From Solirubrobacteraceae bacterium (GTDB lineage: Bacteria; Actinomycetota; Thermoleophilia; Solirubrobacterales; Solirubrobacteraceae): DNA of 64,000 nucleotides. Every line of letters starts with the position of its first letter. Within the stretch, counting starts at the first letter, position 1. Shown here in pieces: positions 5,165 through 20,464 of the stretch. Position numbers and translations under genes: made by a program. The DNA lies in NCBI GenBank assembly GCA_035940195.1, contig DASZFC010000044.1, forward strand, positions 3,267 through 67,266, in the 5' to 3' direction. The notes under the pieces were generated by a model, which worked only from the letters and a program-made list of their open reading frames with translations, was not told the origin of the DNA and ran no database searches.

Positions 5165-5896
5165 ATGGCCACCGTGGCTCCCAAGCTCGTCCTCCACGTC
5201 CTGCCCCCGTCGCACCCGTGCATGACTGCCGCCGCGGCCCTACGCTTGAAGGGCCTCGAGTACGAGCGGGTCGAGTTCGTCCCTGGTCAGCACGTCGAGC
5301 CGATGCAGGAGATCTACGGTGAGGGCAACTACACCGTGCCCGGGATGCTCATCGACGGCGAGCCCGTGCACGGTTCGCGCGCGATCCTCGAGCGCTTGGA
5401 GACGCTGGTAGCCGAGCCGGTTCTCTACCCCTCCGAGGAGGTCCGCGAGGCCGAGCGCTGGGGCGACGAGGAGCTCCAGGATCTCGGGCGGCGGATGCCC
5501 TGGGGAGCGCTCTACTTCCGTCCCGAGGCGATGGGCACCTTCGCGGGCGCTGAGCCTTTGGATGGGCCCGGTACCGACTTCGCGATTCGCTTCGTCCGCG
5601 GCACTTGGAAGTACCACAAGATCACCGCAGAGCGCCTTCACGAGGACCTCGCCGGGCTGCCGGGGAAGCTCGCGCATGTCGAGCAGCTCGCCGCTGACGG
5701 TGTGATCGGCGGTGAGCAGCCGAATGCGGCTGACCTGCAGATCGGCGCAACGCTGCGCATGCTGCTCAACCTCGGCGACCTGCGTCCGCTGCTCGAGGGT
5801 AGTGCTGGCGAGCGGATCGCGCGCGACCTGTTTGCGGAGTATCCCGGGGAGATTCCAGCAGGCGCGTTTCCCGCCGGCTGGGTGCCGGCAATCTGA
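5165..5896 (+). CDS. Glutathione S-transferase N-terminal-domain protein
   Basis: SHPC motif, TVPGMLIDGEPVHGSRAI, PNAADLQI. Confidence 0.88.
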   Translation: MATVAPKLVLHVLPPSHPCMTAAAALRLKGLEYERVEFVPGQHVEPMQEIYGEGNYTVPGMLIDGEPVHGSRAILERLETLVAEPVLYPSEEVREAERWGDEELQDLGRRMPWGALYFRPEAMGTFAGAEPLDGPGTDFAIRFVRGTWKYHKITAERLHEDLAGLPGKLAHVEQLAADGVIGGEQPNAADLQIGATLRMLLNLGDLRPLLEGSAGERIARDLFAEYPGEIPAGAFPAGWVPAI

Positions 5897-5921
5897 TCGC
5901 ACGCGGTGAGGACCCCGCGAC

Positions 5922-8900
5922 TCAGGCATGGGCAAGTGCCCTGCCGCTCTCGTCTATTACCCCGGGCTCGCCTCCGGCCTTGATCCACCGGCGGCGCAGG
6001 TGCTTGGCGTCTATCGTATTGGCATGGTTTGAGATCCATCTGCGGATCGGCTCGCGCACCAGATCGAGCTCGCCTCCGGCTTGCAGCCACTCGCTGTAAA
6101 TGAACCTTGCGTTTGCCGTGTCGCTGTAATTTGAAAGCCATTTTTCGATTGGCTCGCGCACAACGTCCATCTCGCCCCCGGACTGCAGCCACTTGCGACA
6201 GATAATGTTGGCTGCGGTGGTTTGGCTGTGACCCCGAAGCCAAGTCCGCAAAGACTCACGGATAATGTCTCTACGGCCCTTTGCGTCTATCCAGTGCTCA
6301 TAGAGGAAATGTGCACGTGGGGTGTTGGCATGGACTGAAAGCCAGCGCTTTAGCCCCTCGGTCAAAAAACCCGTATCGCCTCCGGCCTTCAGCCATGCAG
6401 CGTAGAGGTAGCTCGCGTCTACGTTTTCGGCGTGGACTGAGAGCCACCGGGTGACCGGCTCGCGGAGAAGATGCACCTCATCTTGACAATCAAGCCAAGC
6501 CTCGTAGGGATAGCGGGCGTTCTGCGTCGTGCCATAGCGCCTGAGCCACTCGCATACGTGCTCTCGGGCGAATGAAATATCGCCTTTGGCGCGAATCCAT
6601 GGCACCCAGACAAAGCTTGTGTCCGTTTGGGCGTTAGCATCGAGCCAGACCGCAATCGGCATGCGCACAACCGAAAGCTCGCCTCCTGCTCGCAGCCAGG
6701 CTCTGAAAACAAACTTGGCGTCCTCGAGGTGAGCATACCGGTGAAGCCAACTCGCCAGTGGCTCACCAACCAGTGAAAGCTCGCCACCGGCTGCCAGCCA
6801 CGACGTATAGATAAATCCAGCGCTTTCAGCAGCTTGATACTTACTGAGCCAGCATCGCAAAGGCTCGCGGACCAGCGAAAGCTCTCCCGAGGCTTCCAAC
6901 CATGCCTGACAGACGAACTGGACTGCCTTTGCGTCGTGGTTGGCGGCCAGCCATTTGCCGATGGGCTCACGCACGACATCTGGCTGGCCGCCGGCTTGCA
7001 GCCACTTACGACAGATTATGTTGGCGGGCTGAGTGTCGCCGAAGAGGCCAAGCCAAGCCTGCAGTGACCCGCCAATCACATCCGGCTCGCCGCCTGCTTC
7101 TAGCCAGCGCTCGTAAACGAATTGGGCGCGGTCGCTCTCGCCGTGAATCTCAAGCCAGCGTCTCAGCGGCTCGCGCACCAGGGAAAGCTCGCCGCCGGCT
7201 GCCAGCCATGTGGCATAGAGGAAACTGGCGTCTTCGGTGTTGCCACAAGCCTGTAGCCATGCCCTAACCGGCTCGCGAACCATGGCGAGCTCACCGCCTG
7301 CCCGCAGCCAGGCCTCATAGGCATACCACGTGTGCTGCTCATGGCCATAGCCGGCGATCGTCCTGGAAAGCGGCTCGCGAACCATGGCGAGCTCCCCGGA
7401 GGCCTCCAGCCATGACCGGCATACCGATCCGGTGTCCGCACTGTCCTTGTGAACTTCAAGCCATCCGCGAATGGGTTCGCGCACAAACCCGGCCTCACCG
7501 GTGCTATCCAGCCAGGCTTGGTAGACGAGTTTGGCCGTCAGAGTTCCGCCATGAACTGAAAGCCACTCGCGGACGCCCTCACACACGGTCTCAGGCTCAC
7601 CTTTGGCGCCCAGCCATGCGTCATAAACAAATCCGGCTGTCTCCTGACTACCGTGAATGGCAAGCCAGCGCCCGATCGGCTCACGGACGACCTCGATGTC
7701 ACCTCCAGCTCTCAGCCACGCTGGATAAAGAAAGCTGGCATTCAGCGTATCGCCATTGACCTCGAGCCAATCGCGCAGCGGTTCTAGGATCACCTCAGGC
7801 TCACCGGATGCCTGCAACCACGCCTCGAGCACATATCGTGTGTCCTTGGCTTGCGCGTGCCGCGTCAGCCATCCTGTGAGTGGCTGTGTGATGAACTCGA
7901 GCTCGCCTTCGGATTCCAGCCACGCTCGGTATACAAATCCACCCCACCGGTCACGGCCGTGAGTGCCGATCCACTGGCGGATCGGCTCGCGCACGAACTC
8001 GAGCCCACCGCCGGTGAGTAACCATGCGTCATAGACCGATCGCGCATCTTTGTCGCTTCCGTGCTTTTCGAGCCATTGCCCAAGTGCTTGCGAAATCAGC
8101 CCGGGCTCGCCCTTGGCCTCGAGCCACGCGCAATAGACGAGCCTTGCGTGCGTCGTTAGAGAAAAGCTGACCAGCCATGCGCTGATTCGCTGGCGCACGA
8201 GCTCGAGCTCGCCTTTGGCCTGCAGCCACTTCCAGTAAATGATGCTTGCAATGGTGCTCTGGCCATGAACGTCAAGCCATCTGCGGACCGGCTCACGCAC
8301 GAAATCGAGCTCTCCCCCTGACTCGAGCCATGCCCTGAGAACAAAGCTAGCGTCCTCGTCTTCTCCGTTGACAGCGAGCCAAGCCCTGATCTCCTCGCGC
8401 ACTAGCTCGCGCTCACCGCCCGCATCAAGCCAAGCCCGGTAAAGAAACCGCGCCTCCTTCAGAGTGGCATGCTCTGCCAACCACTGGCTGATCGCCTCAC
8501 AGACAAAGCCGCGCTCACCTTTCGCCTCTAGCCAGGCACAGAAGACATGGTGGGCAGTCGCTTCGCCAGCGTGCTGCCCCAACCAGGCCCTGATCTCCTC
8601 GCGCACTAGCTCGCGCTCACCGCCCGCATCAAGCCAAGCCCGGTAAAGAAACCGCGCCTCTTTCAGAGTGGCGTGCTCTGCCAGCCACTGGCTGATCGCC
8701 TCACGGACAAAGCCCGGCTGACCTGTGGCGTCCAGCCACGCGCTATAGAGGAAACGCGCATCCCTGCTTTGGCGGTGCACTTCGATCCATCGCTTGATGC
8801 TCTCGCGCACGAGTGAGAGCTCGCCACCGCCGCCCAGCCACGCCTTGTACACGAACTCCGCGGCCTCGGCGTCAGCGTGCTCCTGTAGCCAGGCGCGCAT

Positions 8901-9185
8901 CGGCTCACGCACCAGCTCGAGCTCCCCGCCAGCGTCCAGCCAGGCTGGATAGACGTGGCTCGCCTGGATCGCCTGGGCATTGGGTATCAACCAAGCGCGC
9001 AGTGGCTCACGCACCAGATCGAGCCCACCCCCGGCCTCCAGCCAAGCTGGATAGACGTAGCTGGCTCCGATCGCCTGGGCGTTGAGCTTTAGCCAGGCAC
9101 GCAGCGGCTCGCGCACGAGTGCGAGCTCACCGCTATCGAGCAGCTCCGCCAGCGACGGCTCGAAAGCATGGCTCGACAGGTTCAT
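5922..9185 (-). CDS. 1087-aa helical-repeat (alpha-solenoid) protein of unknown function
   Basis: Long uninterrupted ORF with 30 complete 34-aa units (one is 33 aa) plus terminal partial units, consensus AxFVYxAWLEAGGELELVREPIRxWLxxHGxxxD. TAGCGT -10-like hexamer 8 nt before ATG. Confidence 0.9.
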   Translation of the reverse strand: MNLSSHAFEPSLAELLDSGELALVREPLRAWLKLNAQAIGASYVYPAWLEAGGGLDLVREPLRAWLIPNAQAIQASHVYPAWLDAGGELELVREPMRAWLQEHADAEAAEFVYKAWLGGGGELSLVRESIKRWIEVHRQSRDARFLYSAWLDATGQPGFVREAISQWLAEHATLKEARFLYRAWLDAGGERELVREEIRAWLGQHAGEATAHHVFCAWLEAKGERGFVCEAISQWLAEHATLKEARFLYRAWLDAGGERELVREEIRAWLAVNGEDEDASFVLRAWLESGGELDFVREPVRRWLDVHGQSTIASIIYWKWLQAKGELELVRQRISAWLVSFSLTTHARLVYCAWLEAKGEPGLISQALGQWLEKHGSDKDARSVYDAWLLTGGGLEFVREPIRQWIGTHGRDRWGGFVYRAWLESEGELEFITQPLTGWLTRHAQAKDTRYVLEAWLQASGEPEVILEPLRDWLEVNGDTLNASFLYPAWLRAGGDIEVVREPIGRWLAIHGSQETAGFVYDAWLGAKGEPETVCEGVREWLSVHGGTLTAKLVYQAWLDSTGEAGFVREPIRGWLEVHKDSADTGSVCRSWLEASGELAMVREPLSRTIAGYGHEQHTWYAYEAWLRAGGELAMVREPVRAWLQACGNTEDASFLYATWLAAGGELSLVREPLRRWLEIHGESDRAQFVYERWLEAGGEPDVIGGSLQAWLGLFGDTQPANIICRKWLQAGGQPDVVREPIGKWLAANHDAKAVQFVCQAWLEASGELSLVREPLRCWLSKYQAAESAGFIYTSWLAAGGELSLVGEPLASWLHRYAHLEDAKFVFRAWLRAGGELSVVRMPIAVWLDANAQTDTSFVWVPWIRAKGDISFAREHVCEWLRRYGTTQNARYPYEAWLDCQDEVHLLREPVTRWLSVHAENVDASYLYAAWLKAGGDTGFLTEGLKRWLSVHANTPRAHFLYEHWIDAKGRRDIIRESLRTWLRGHSQTTAANIICRKWLQSGGEMDVVREPIEKWLSNYSDTANARFIYSEWLQAGGELDLVREPIRRWISNHANTIDAKHLRRRWIKAGGEPGVIDESGRALAHA
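8383..8714. repeat. Near-identical direct repeat, about 128 bp at 204-bp period, inside the repeat gene
   Basis: 8383-8510 vs 8587-8714, both encoding GFVxEAISQWLAEHATLKEARFLYRAWLDAGGERELVREEIRA. Confidence 0.9.
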
Positions 9186-9304
9186 GCCGAGGGACGCTAC
9201 CCCGGGCTTGGGATAAAACTCTCGTCCGGCCCGGCTGAACCGTTTTGGGCGATAAAGGATGGCATCCCATATCCCACCGGGCCATCAGCTGGCCGGCCCC
9301 CCTG

Positions 9305-9913
9305 CTACGTACGGGGGTCGCGCCACATCGGCCACATCCTCGGACCACGGGGAAGGTCGATCTCGCCCGTCACACGGAATCCGTGACGTGCATAGAAGTC
9401 GATGTTGCGCTCCTTCGAGGACTCCAGGTACGCGCCGATCCCATCCGTGTCGCAGCGCTCGAGCACGGGCTGCAGGACAGCCGAGCCGAGGCCCTGACCC
9501 TGGGCGCTTGGATCGGTGCCGAGCACAGCCAGATACCAGTGGGGTTTCTCGCGGGGGTGCCTGCGCTCCATTCCGAGCAGGCCGGTCGCGATCAGGGGCA
9601 TGCGTCCGATCAGGCGAGGGTGAAGCAGACAGCGAGCGAGCTGCATATCCTCCCGCCCGGTGGTCTTCCAGCGCTTTGGTGGCGCCCACAACGCCACGCA
9701 GCTTCGCTCTGCAGTTGTCCACACCTCATCGTGCACGAGCAACTGACGCAGACGCGCGCCATTGAAACGCTCGAGCATCCCCAAGCGCAGCCCATCGGGC
9801 CGGCATGACCACCTCGCCACCGGATCATCCAAGAACGCCCGCGCCAACACCCCCGCCAGCGCAGACGCATCCTGACCAGTAGCCCTAACCGGGATGTGAG
9901 GCTGGATCCCCAT
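9305..9913 (-). CDS. GNAT-family N-acetyltransferase
   Basis: LARAFLDDP..HWYLAVLGTDPSAQGQGLGSA..AYLESS..NIDFYARHGF. Confidence 0.92.
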   Translation of the reverse strand: MGIQPHIPVRATGQDASALAGVLARAFLDDPVARWSCRPDGLRLGMLERFNGARLRQLLVHDEVWTTAERSCVALWAPPKRWKTTGREDMQLARCLLHPRLIGRMPLIATGLLGMERRHPREKPHWYLAVLGTDPSAQGQGLGSAVLQPVLERCDTDGIGAYLESSKERNIDFYARHGFRVTGEIDLPRGPRMWPMWRDPRT

Positions 9914-10056
9914 CGTCCGCAAGCGTAACGAGTGCGCCTTGGAGCGCAGCCCCAACAACAGCTCGCTCTCTCCAAGAGCTCTACACGCGGGCGGGCTGGT
10001 CCCATGTCCGCGCTCCAGCTACGTGCGGTATCGCGCGTCACGCCCAGCGCCTCGCG

Positions 10057-10095
10057 AAAAGCTGAAGAACCGCCCACTTGCAGGCGGTTCTTCAG
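10057..10095 (-). terminator. Intrinsic terminator after tRNA-Ala(CGC)
   Basis: CTGAAGAACCGCC/GGCGGTTCTTCAG 13-bp stem, followed by CTTTT on the minus strand. Confidence 0.8.
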
Positions 10096-10168
10096 TGGAG
10101 CTAGGGGGACTCGAACCCCCGACCTCCTGGGTGCGATCCAGGCGCTCTCCCAACTGAGCTATAGCCCC
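10096..10168 (-). tRNA. tRNA-Ala (anticodon CGC), CCA not encoded
   Basis: GGGGCTATAGCTCAGTTGGGAGAGCGCCTGGATCGCACCCAGGAGGTCGGGGGTTCGAGTCCCCCTAGCTCCA: cloverleaf with G3:U70. Confidence 0.97.
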
Positions 10169-11720: not shown

Positions 11721-11793
11721 GGGCCCATAGCTCAGCTGGGAGAGCGCCTGCTTTGCAAGCAGGAGGTCGACGGTTCGATCCCGTCTGGGTCCA
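11721..11793 (+). tRNA. tRNA-Ala (anticodon TGC), CCA not encoded
   Basis: GGGCCCATAGCTCAGCTGGGAGAGCGCCTGCTTTGCAAGCAGGAGGTCGACGGTTCGATCCCGTCTGGGTCCA. TATATT -10 at 11705-11710. Confidence 0.97.
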
Positions 11794-19594: not shown

Positions 19595-20464
19595 ATGCCC
19601 CGCCCGATTTGGAGCGGCACGATCAGTTTTGGCCTGGTCAGCGTGCCCGTCAAGCTCTACAGCGCGCTCGATCGCAAGACGGTGCGCTTTCATCAGCTCT
19701 CTGCCAAGACAGGCACGCGTATAGCCCAGAAGCGCGTCGATCCGCAGACCGGCGAGGAGGTCCCATACGAGGAAATCGTCAAGGGCTATGAGATCGCCCC
19801 TGACCGCTATGTCGTGATCGAGCCCGGAGAGCTGGATGCGCTGGCCCCGGAGAAGACCAAGACGATCGAGATCGAGGATTTCGTCGAGCTGTCTGAGATA
19901 GACCCGATCCTCTTCGACCATCCCTACTACCTGGCTCCCGGCCCCGGAGGCGCAAAGCCCTACCGGCTGCTGCTGGAGGCGATGACACAGACGGGAAAGG
20001 TCGCGATCGCGCGAGTCGTGATCCGCTCCAAGGAGCAGCTCGTCGCGATCCGTCCGCTGGGCGACGTGCTGATGATGGAGACGATGCTGTTCTCAGACGA
20101 AGTCCGCATTCCCGACCGGCTCGAGGAGCTCTCCGATGTGGCCGAGGTCAAAACGACCGAGCGCGAGCGCGAGATCGCCAAGCAGCTCGTCGACTCGCTC
20201 ACCGGCGGCTTCGAGGCCGGCCGCTACCGCGACAGCTACCGCGAGCAGGTGCTCGGGCTGATCGAGCGCAAGGCCCAGGGCGAGGAGATCACCGCACAGG
20301 CACCTAAAGACAAGCCGCAAACGAGCGCACCCGACCTGATGAGCGCGCTCCAGGCCAGCCTGGACGAGGTGCGCAAGCAAGGCAAAGCCGGCACCGGCAA
20401 AAAGCCGCGCACCTCGGCAAAGCCCAAGACCAGCACCCCCCGCGCCAAGAACACCTCGCGCTAG
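19595..20464 (+). CDS. ku: Ku protein (NHEJ)
   Basis: MPRPIWSGTISFGLVSVPVKLY, IVKGYE, DLMSALQASL plus basic tail. Confidence 0.97.
   Translation: MPRPIWSGTISFGLVSVPVKLYSALDRKTVRFHQLSAKTGTRIAQKRVDPQTGEEVPYEEIVKGYEIAPDRYVVIEPGELDALAPEKTKTIEIEDFVELSEIDPILFDHPYYLAPGPGGAKPYRLLLEAMTQTGKVAIARVVIRSKEQLVAIRPLGDVLMMETMLFSDEVRIPDRLEELSDVAEVKTTEREREIAKQLVDSLTGGFEAGRYRDSYREQVLGLIERKAQGEEITAQAPKDKPQTSAPDLMSALQASLDEVRKQGKAGTGKKPRTSAKPKTSTPRAKNTSR

Follow-up and report, generated by a model that had tools for sequence, protein, structure and literature searches.

The repeat gene and its locus

The window analysed here, a stretch of 64,000 nucleotides from a Solirubrobacteraceae genome, carries on its reverse strand a gene that codes for a protein of 1087 amino acids (aa), most of it a tandem array of a 34-residue helical repeat. 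We found this repeat gene to be a sensor array detached from a STAND immune ATPase, capped and conserved, whose specificity face comprises three residues, at unit positions 2, 3 and 6. Its parts are the following:

5922..9185 (-): stand-alone repeat gene, 1087 aa, an all-helical alpha-solenoid (open reading frame (ORF) call; AlphaFold2 model with mean pLDDT 86.5)
9066..9185 (-): N-cap, residues 1-40, with the family motif F-x-P-S/T-x-x-E/D-L-L and then a partial unit; the motif does not occur in STAND members
6009..9065 (-): array of 30 units; helix A spans unit positions 1-10 and carries the 2-3-x-x-6 triad, helix B spans 15-29
5922..6008 (-): C-cap, a 28-aa partial unit common to the paralogue and the congeners, standing where STAND members have a C-terminal domain of ~195 aa

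The 30 contiguous units start after residue 40; 29 have 34 aa and unit 24 has 33, and a 28-aa partial unit follows, while residues 16-40 of the leader also form a partial unit. This count bears out an earlier description of the array, made from the letters alone (the sequence-only reading), as does the conserved framework given there (A1, W8-L9, G13, W25-L26): among the 29 full units, W8 is found in 29, L or I at position 9 in 29, W25 and G13 in 28 each, and A1 in 23. The same reading had called positions 2-3, 6 and the last one hypervariable. This holds for 2 and 6 but fails for position 3, which is aromatic in 22/29 units. Moreover, positions 27, 28, 31 and 33 reach the same between-unit variability as 2, 6 and 34 (entropy 3.1-3.4 bits), so that variability alone does not pick out the latter three. 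The units of stand-alone genes are diverged, with a mean of 13.5 of 34 residues identical (~40%).

Scans of the protein against Pfam, NCBIfam and PADLOC returned no family over its cut-off, in line with the absence of an enzyme domain noted earlier and with the view that the repeat is not a canonical TPR, HAT, PPR or TALE; TPR_14 reached 15.8 bits on a segment of the protein against a cut-off of 23.5, and matched 8/44 segments at E<=0.1. The highest 19-residue hydropathy is 1.03, and the protein therefore has no transmembrane segment, again as first described. Neither a Walker A motif or STAND P-loop NTPase nor, in the ORF and library scans, an N-terminal effector domain was found in it. An in-frame stop lies 33 codons 5' of the ORF, and the 120-nt gap to the next gene upstream leaves no space for a STAND half. 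The surroundings of the gene are these:

5902..9228 (about; no strand): accessory unit, the gene with its ~45-nt promoter, occupying a variable slot; the unit is not at this slot in G099 and G276
5165..5896 (+): glutathione S-transferase (GST) gene, convergent neighbour outside the accessory unit (library scan)
9305..9958 (-): GNAT acetyltransferase gene, upstream neighbour, 120 nt from the repeat gene

In the congeners G099 and G276, whose GST genes are 96-97% identical to that of the window, the GST-GNAT slot lacks the repeat gene; the orthologue in G276 is located elsewhere, close to comM and a DRT-like reverse transcriptase gene. The vacant slot in such close relatives indicates that the gene was acquired, as had been supposed from its A/T-richness. 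Indeed, its GC content is 0.615, and 0.689 at third codon positions, as compared to 0.644-0.683 and 0.78-0.85, respectively, in six neighbouring genes. The start of the gene is bridged by contigs of the public runs X1 and X2 (8631-9419, zero differences) and its end by contigs of X1 and X3, the latter from another strain (109 differences in 3461 nt, 3%). Since both ends are bridged by contigs of three public runs, the stand-alone form is real and not an assembly artefact. RNA run X6 held short, low-depth contig pieces of the gene, which do not demonstrate transcription. Elsewhere in the window, two tRNA-Ala genes (10095-10168 and 11721-11793) lie less than 3 kb upstream of the repeat gene, and the ORF at 19595-20464 has an N-terminus that we take to resemble Ku.

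Descent from a STAND sensor array

A profile-profile alignment (hhalign) of the window units with the arrays of STAND proteins gave a probability of 100 and an E-value of 6e-98. A protein search with the repeat produced 156 matches; among the 120 listed, 108 carry a Walker A motif ahead of the array, and in none does the array stand at the N-terminus. Among cluster representatives the search yielded 470 matches. The typical member has an N-terminal effector, an nSTAND5-like P-loop near residue 255, an array starting at about residue 720 and a tail of ~195 aa. The effector is either a domain with invariant D48, D52 and K67 and a nearly invariant E65, presumably a PD-(D/E)XK nuclease by its motif, or a caspase, trypsin or phosphoesterase. 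The family resembles nSTAND_NTPase5 (PF25199), mostly under the cut-off. Its 122 complete members have 4-19 units (median 8) and occur in Acidobacteria, Alphaproteobacteria, Verrucomicrobia, Gaiellaceae and others; truncated pieces also occur (P0233). One IMG/VR locus holds a full STAND next to an integrase-like gene, and phage and plasmid records gave no match to the repeat.

Avs STANDs also have helical-repeat sensors, and the window repeat corresponds to such a sensor array. The window gene differs from them in that it lacks the ATPase, effector and C-terminal domain, and in that it has its own caps and promoter; moreover, it has 31 units where the parent median is 8, and its triplets (the residues at 2, 3 and 6) are frozen while those of the parent are reshuffled. 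In the accessible part of one survey, 589 clades are distinguished (PMC13581612).

The stand-alone form is a family of the genus, which is a soil genus. Matches to the repeat were found in 25/400 congeners, and the loci fetched from them contained 47 repeat frames, spread over 23 genomes; G293 and G114 yielded no frame and were left out. None of the 47 frames has a Walker A motif, and in 45 the array begins within the first 145 residues. At least two frames are present in 13 genomes, frameshift pieces counted; some copies are short or frameshifted, and intact orthologues of 1087-1088 aa exist in three other species. The N- and C-cap motifs of this family were found in none of the STAND members. 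Outside the genus, 1/400 genomes of the class matched, through a frame of 1426 codons equal in length to the Gaiellaceae STAND L117, and 0/400 genomes matched at the level of the phylum. In 58 metagenome loci we found 57 repeat frames; 21 of these frames are STANDs, and the capped stand-alone frames lie on contigs of 62-69% GC. L117 (4981-12251), which has 22 near-identical units and no C-terminal domain and lies directly behind uvrA, is a plausible relative of the donor.

The window's own genome (G000, 85% complete) contains a paralogue of 30 full units between the same two caps; it starts at the end of contig C33 and appears to continue at the start of C64. Both paralogues have 31 units, of which only units 1, 2 and 30 correspond; the interior identity averages 14.2/34 on the diagonal and 15.0 off it, and a colinear interior order was therefore rejected. 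Downstream of the paralogue (L101, C64:5198-15461) lie two ssb genes, comM, two ParB-HTH genes and a TraG/TraD-like gene, in a region resembling an integrative element. No STAND N-half or C-domain was found in this genome, and we accordingly rejected the idea of a split gene. The sequence-only reading contained neither the STAND (NLR-like) sensor-array identity nor the paralogue, the genus-wide family or the conserved promoter of DNA-damage type described below.

Other loci of the family show a varied neighbourhood. In three genomes (L048, L051 and L057) an McrB-McrC pair lies just upstream of, and on the same strand as, a repeat gene of 23-26 units. L046 (3421-12082) has three tandem repeat genes of 25-28 units each near a TcpC conjugative-element gene. 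Second recA copies are present at L060 (5667-8438) and L091, and in G223 a second recA and a 7-unit repeat gene are ~0.9 kb apart, separated by an ssb-like gene.

The substitution patterns of the two forms set positions 2 and 6 apart. Between stand-alone orthologues (94% and 88% identity) the ratio of non-synonymous to synonymous rates (dN/dS) is 0.19, and in the paralogue group it is 0.32-0.35. The value of 0.19 rejects positive selection on the repeat gene, and with it the suggestion of a diversifying pattern receptor. Positions 2 and 6 together changed in 15/186 orthologous codons, as compared to 153/730 at eight other high-entropy positions (pooled Fisher p = 2e-5; 0.057, 0.004 and 0.010 for the individual pairs, which share sequences). 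Position 34, proposed earlier as a code position, changed in 15/88 codons, as other surface sites do, and loses that role. Inside the arrays of 54 STAND proteins, 13.9% of all differences between near-identical units fall on position 2, 11.0% on position 6 and 1.0% on position 3 (2.9% expected if uniform), and 2 and 6 are the top-changed site in 36/54. At the DNA level, position 2 has pN 0.47 against pS 0.28 and position 6 has pN 0.20 against pS 0.37, from 153 non-independent pairs, 72 of them from L117. Closely related STANDs differ in unit number (6-10) and in their triplet string. The 835 internal STAND units have an aromatic residue at position 3 in 96% and K or R at position 6 in 52% of cases, and the commonest triplets are QFK (77), QFR (49), GFR (46) and RFK (37). 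Since positions 2 and 6 change inside STAND arrays and are kept between stand-alone orthologues, they behave like sites of specificity, which the receptors reshuffle and the stand-alone genes keep constant. This agrees with the proposal of an undescribed bacterial solenoid whose helix-A face resembles a ligand-reading surface. Nothing that we found in the part of the literature covered describes this repeat, the stand-alone family or a STAND sensor of PUF-like kind from a prokaryote.

A promoter of DNA-damage type

Immediately ahead of the gene lies one further element:

9194..9215 (-): bipartite promoter-like site TATCCC-N10-TAGCGT, 8 nt before the ATG, in leaderless geometry

Most copies of the family have a site of the form YRTCSC-N10-NANNNT 6-8 nt ahead of their start. 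As recA is unassembled in the window's own genome, recA loci of congeners were taken instead, and GTC-N12-TA-N3-T was present in 11/11 of these from 10 congeners. The genus recA site agrees with the PafBC consensus tGTCgg(N10)tA(N3)T (PMC8635444, in the part available), and the window site has the same layout as this actinobacterial (RecA-NDp) regulon (-26 hexamer, N10 spacer, tA-N3-T box), differing from it by ATC for GTC and by a lineage-specific AAGC extension. ATC is also found in the five closest relatives and the paralogue. At leaderless spacing, the GTC core precedes 19/39 family copies but only 21/1441 control ORFs, and the relaxed RTC core 27/39 but only 36/1441. A matrix trained on recA alone scored 13.5 bits for the paralogue and 19.9 for two congeners, and all 10 metagenome frames with a detected N-cap pattern (6 distinct) have the site. 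A sigma-70 scan gave 0 sites.

An extended motif, defined after its matches had been seen, occurs 19 times in the genome and 0-2 times in each of 10 shuffles. It precedes genes for SRAP, ComM (twice), SSB (twice), Gp49, DUF7718, a PDC-S06 ATPase and both repeat proteins, with looser forms ahead of radA, two dprA genes and a SNF2 helicase gene. The genome also encodes a PafBC fusion, a 715-aa frame with two WYL domains on contig C54, and its best-scoring site (L103, C54:25356-28218) precedes an OB+HD (YhaM-like) gene just upstream of this fusion. The available portions of two PafBC papers do not list these genes (PMC8682763, PMC5656591). Sites with the AAGC extension were recorded at C3:37961, C5:5593, C12:14028, C18:38446, C30:95097, C64:5198 and 8203, C72:15615 and C88:41565, 43182 and 45580; they link duplicate ssb, comM, dprA, SRAP and toxin-antitoxin-type genes (Gp49, DUF7718). 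This suggests that the genes behind AAGC-extended promoters are mobile cassettes plugged into the damage response of the host.

The predicted groove and its ligand

The AlphaFold2 model of the full-length protein and a model of 8 units (pLDDT 86.5 and 96.1) are both two-helix solenoids, with helix A at positions 1-10 and helix B at 15-29. A Foldseek search of the PDB with the 8-unit model retrieved PUF domains as 8 of the 11 matches at E<=0.001, the top ones included, while the full-length model found only generic solenoids (TM<0.3). In a wide VIA search, mitoribosome repeat proteins, RESC and armadillo proteins came out on top (Z 15-17, rmsd 3-5 A over ~270 residues), 6 of the top 8 matches being mitoribosome or RESC solenoids. 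Importin-alpha and designed armadillo proteins scored Z 14-15.6, and a designer PPR ranked 33rd (Z 12.2). The top 50 rows were mostly ARM, HEAT, PUF and organellar solenoids, with no prominent TPR protein, which does not in itself speak against a TPR relationship. These armadillo/HEAT and organellar RNA-binding solenoids (importin-alpha/beta, RESC, mitoribosome) are alike to the window protein in giving the best Z-scores and differ in sequence, with 7-13% identity to the model. Since the Z-scores are tied between RNA-binding and peptide-binding solenoids, the fold does not name the ligand. The viral fold library gave no match at E<=0.001, the ESM Atlas only uninformative best scores of 0.80 and 0.76, and the best weak match of the profile search was the HAT domain of Rrp5 (E 0.29; HAT_PRP39_C in 1/44 segments at E 0.017).

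The models predict a low-twist solenoid with helix A on the inside. For the register we took the first PUM1 triad and the importin Trp ladder at their usual numbering; residue 1 of the model was aligned to PUM2 residue 740 and, in several rows, to importin-alpha residue 140. On this alignment positions 2, 3 and 6 would coincide with the triad of PUF, and F3 with a Trp that is exposed. The domain starts used for it, 828 and 706, come from sources available in part (10.1101/403006, PMC5393172). The 2-3-x-x-6 triad, with its central aromatic residue, has the spacing of the 1-2-X-X-5 motif by which PUF proteins read bases, residue 2 stacking, and the same source, as far as it was available, reports PUFs to be absent from prokaryotes (PMC7325665). 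The parent arrays have a median of 8 units, and some triplets (QFR, TFR, SYR-type) are known PUF readers; in the accessible part of a PUM1 library selection, QFR and TFR prefer cytosine (PMC8384837). The window unit differs from PUF in having 34 aa and two helices as compared to 36 aa and three, in its rmsd of 8-9 A, and in that G, Q, R and D at the first triad position and K at the fifth are not natural PUF codes. There is also no match in sequence, as PF00806 was found neither in the 1087-aa protein nor among the 25 of 40 families listed.

PUF and ARM proteins are nearer analogues than the TALE or PPR proteins that the sequence-only reading took as models. In TALEs the varying di-residue sits in the loop between the helices of near-identical 34-aa units, whereas in the window protein the loop G13 is conserved, the variable sites lie in helix A and the units are 40% identical. 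PPRs have a 35-aa unit with a code at positions 5 and 35, whereas the window unit has 34 aa and its last position is not conserved between orthologues.

We tentatively favour, at somewhat under even confidence, the reading that the repeat gene encodes a damage-induced putative binder of single-stranded nucleic acid. The array of a STAND immune ATPase has become stand-alone with its own end caps, and its transcription would depend on the PafBC-type activator of the genome, together with ssb, comM, dprA, radA and SRAP. Single-stranded nucleic acid would be held along the predicted inner groove at about one base per repeat, the aromatic residue at position 3 stacking on bases and positions 2 and 6 touching base edges, as in PUF proteins. 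Because there is no catalytic domain, the protein may coat or sequester single-stranded DNA (or RNA) of damaged chromosomes or mobile elements, or pass it to partners, for example McrBC. Positions 2 and 6 of the protein are net basic (+17/-8), and P0094, a trypsin-STAND-repeat protein with three S1 RNA-binding domains behind its array, also speaks for this reading. A strict 31-base code is less probable than a relaxed specificity. We consider unlikely the stronger proposal of a bacterial PUF-like code, in which each 34-aa unit would read one base through positions 2, 3 and 6, the parent STANDs would be NLRs recognising single strands by sequence with reshufflable arrays of ~8 units, and the 6-39-unit proteins of the genus would be programmable binders under DNA-damage control.

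Several observations weigh against nucleic acid binding under damage control. On the structural side, the best PUF match in Foldseek is modest (E 2.3e-4, TM 0.51, rmsd 8.5 A), PUF-type chains (Z 10.9-12.5) score under the peptide-binding armadillo and importin proteins (~14-16), searches with two profiles found no PUF chain at E<=10, and the assignment of helix A as the inner helix derives from the first residues of alignment ranges and partly from the usual numbering of the reference proteins. The protein is net acidic (D+E 149, K+R 116), its 2/3/6/10 face is neutral (+21/-23), and 7/29 units lack the aromatic residue at position 3. On the promoter side, the window copy carries A where the PafBC site has a near-invariant G, and scores only 2.8 bits with a recA-trained matrix (p ~0.05 per 150 nt); 12/39 family copies have no site; the three repeat genes behind McrB-McrC operons, two of them in the 39-copy count, lack it; the core is missing in 15/16 STAND parents; the extended motif is post hoc; and paralogues share promoters by descent. 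Finally, in the available part of PMC13581612, each characterised Avs helical sensor binds a phage protein.

The last point bears directly on the alternative that the origin and the groove are the same but the ligand is a protein, which we regard as nearly as likely. Here the array would wrap an extended peptide or a long helix of a phage, mobile-element or host repair protein and block or sequester it, acting as a restriction factor or sponge without an effector. All 13/13 newly assigned Avs families sense proteins via TPR-like sensors (PMC13581612, same part), and in the available part of another study the TPR/ANK arrays of fungal NLRs likewise combine near-identical units with concave positions that vary (PMC4986451). 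These HET-E/D repeats resemble the STAND parents also in repeat-number variation and in having few hypervariable positions, and differ in repeat type and in that the stand-alone genes have diverged units under purifying selection. The Z-scores of importin-alpha and designed armadillo proteins, the arms-race-like differences in unit number and triplet string between related STANDs, and the McrB-McrC pair directly upstream of the repeat gene in 3 loci also fit a protein ligand, and a suicide nuclease set off by any short RNA word would presumably be self-destructive. However, the window repeat seems to have alanine where armadillo repeats carry the backbone-binding Asn (in the register of the structural alignment), a near-invariant exposed aromatic with a variable polar residue on either side is what PUF shows, the shared promoter ties the gene to genes that handle single-stranded DNA, and the triplet string is frozen between orthologues and not diversifying.

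It is improbable that the protein acts in trans, as a decoy or adaptor, with a full-length STAND of its own family inside one cell. The lack of an ATPase and an effector in this sensor would fit such a role, as would the occurrence in the class of a 22-unit STAND (L117) whose unit is very similar, but no cognate N-half was found in its own genome or in 401 genomes of the genus, carriers included, beyond 3 weak P-loop matches, the genomes being incomplete (85% for its own). A decaying STAND remnant or assembly artefact, which the frameshifted or short congener copies and the truncated STAND pieces might suggest, is very improbable, and refuted for the window copy by purifying selection (dN/dS 0.19-0.35 in the family), the dedicated caps and promoter, the intact orthologues in three other species and the independent contigs that span its junctions.

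Should nucleic acid be what the groove reads, the family would be a modular reader of single strands in prokaryotes, of the PUF type that is otherwise thought to be confined to eukaryotes, and its parents would be the first bacterial NLR family found to sense nucleic acid and not protein, as far as the literature was covered. Its arrays, which in nature have 5-39 stackable units and thousands of triplets, would then offer a ready scaffold for programmable binders. With a protein as ligand, the family is still a clear example of an immune sensor that was separated from its receptor, acquired new caps and a promoter of DNA-damage type and multiplied within one genus, and positions 2, 3 and 6 would be its candidate contact residues.

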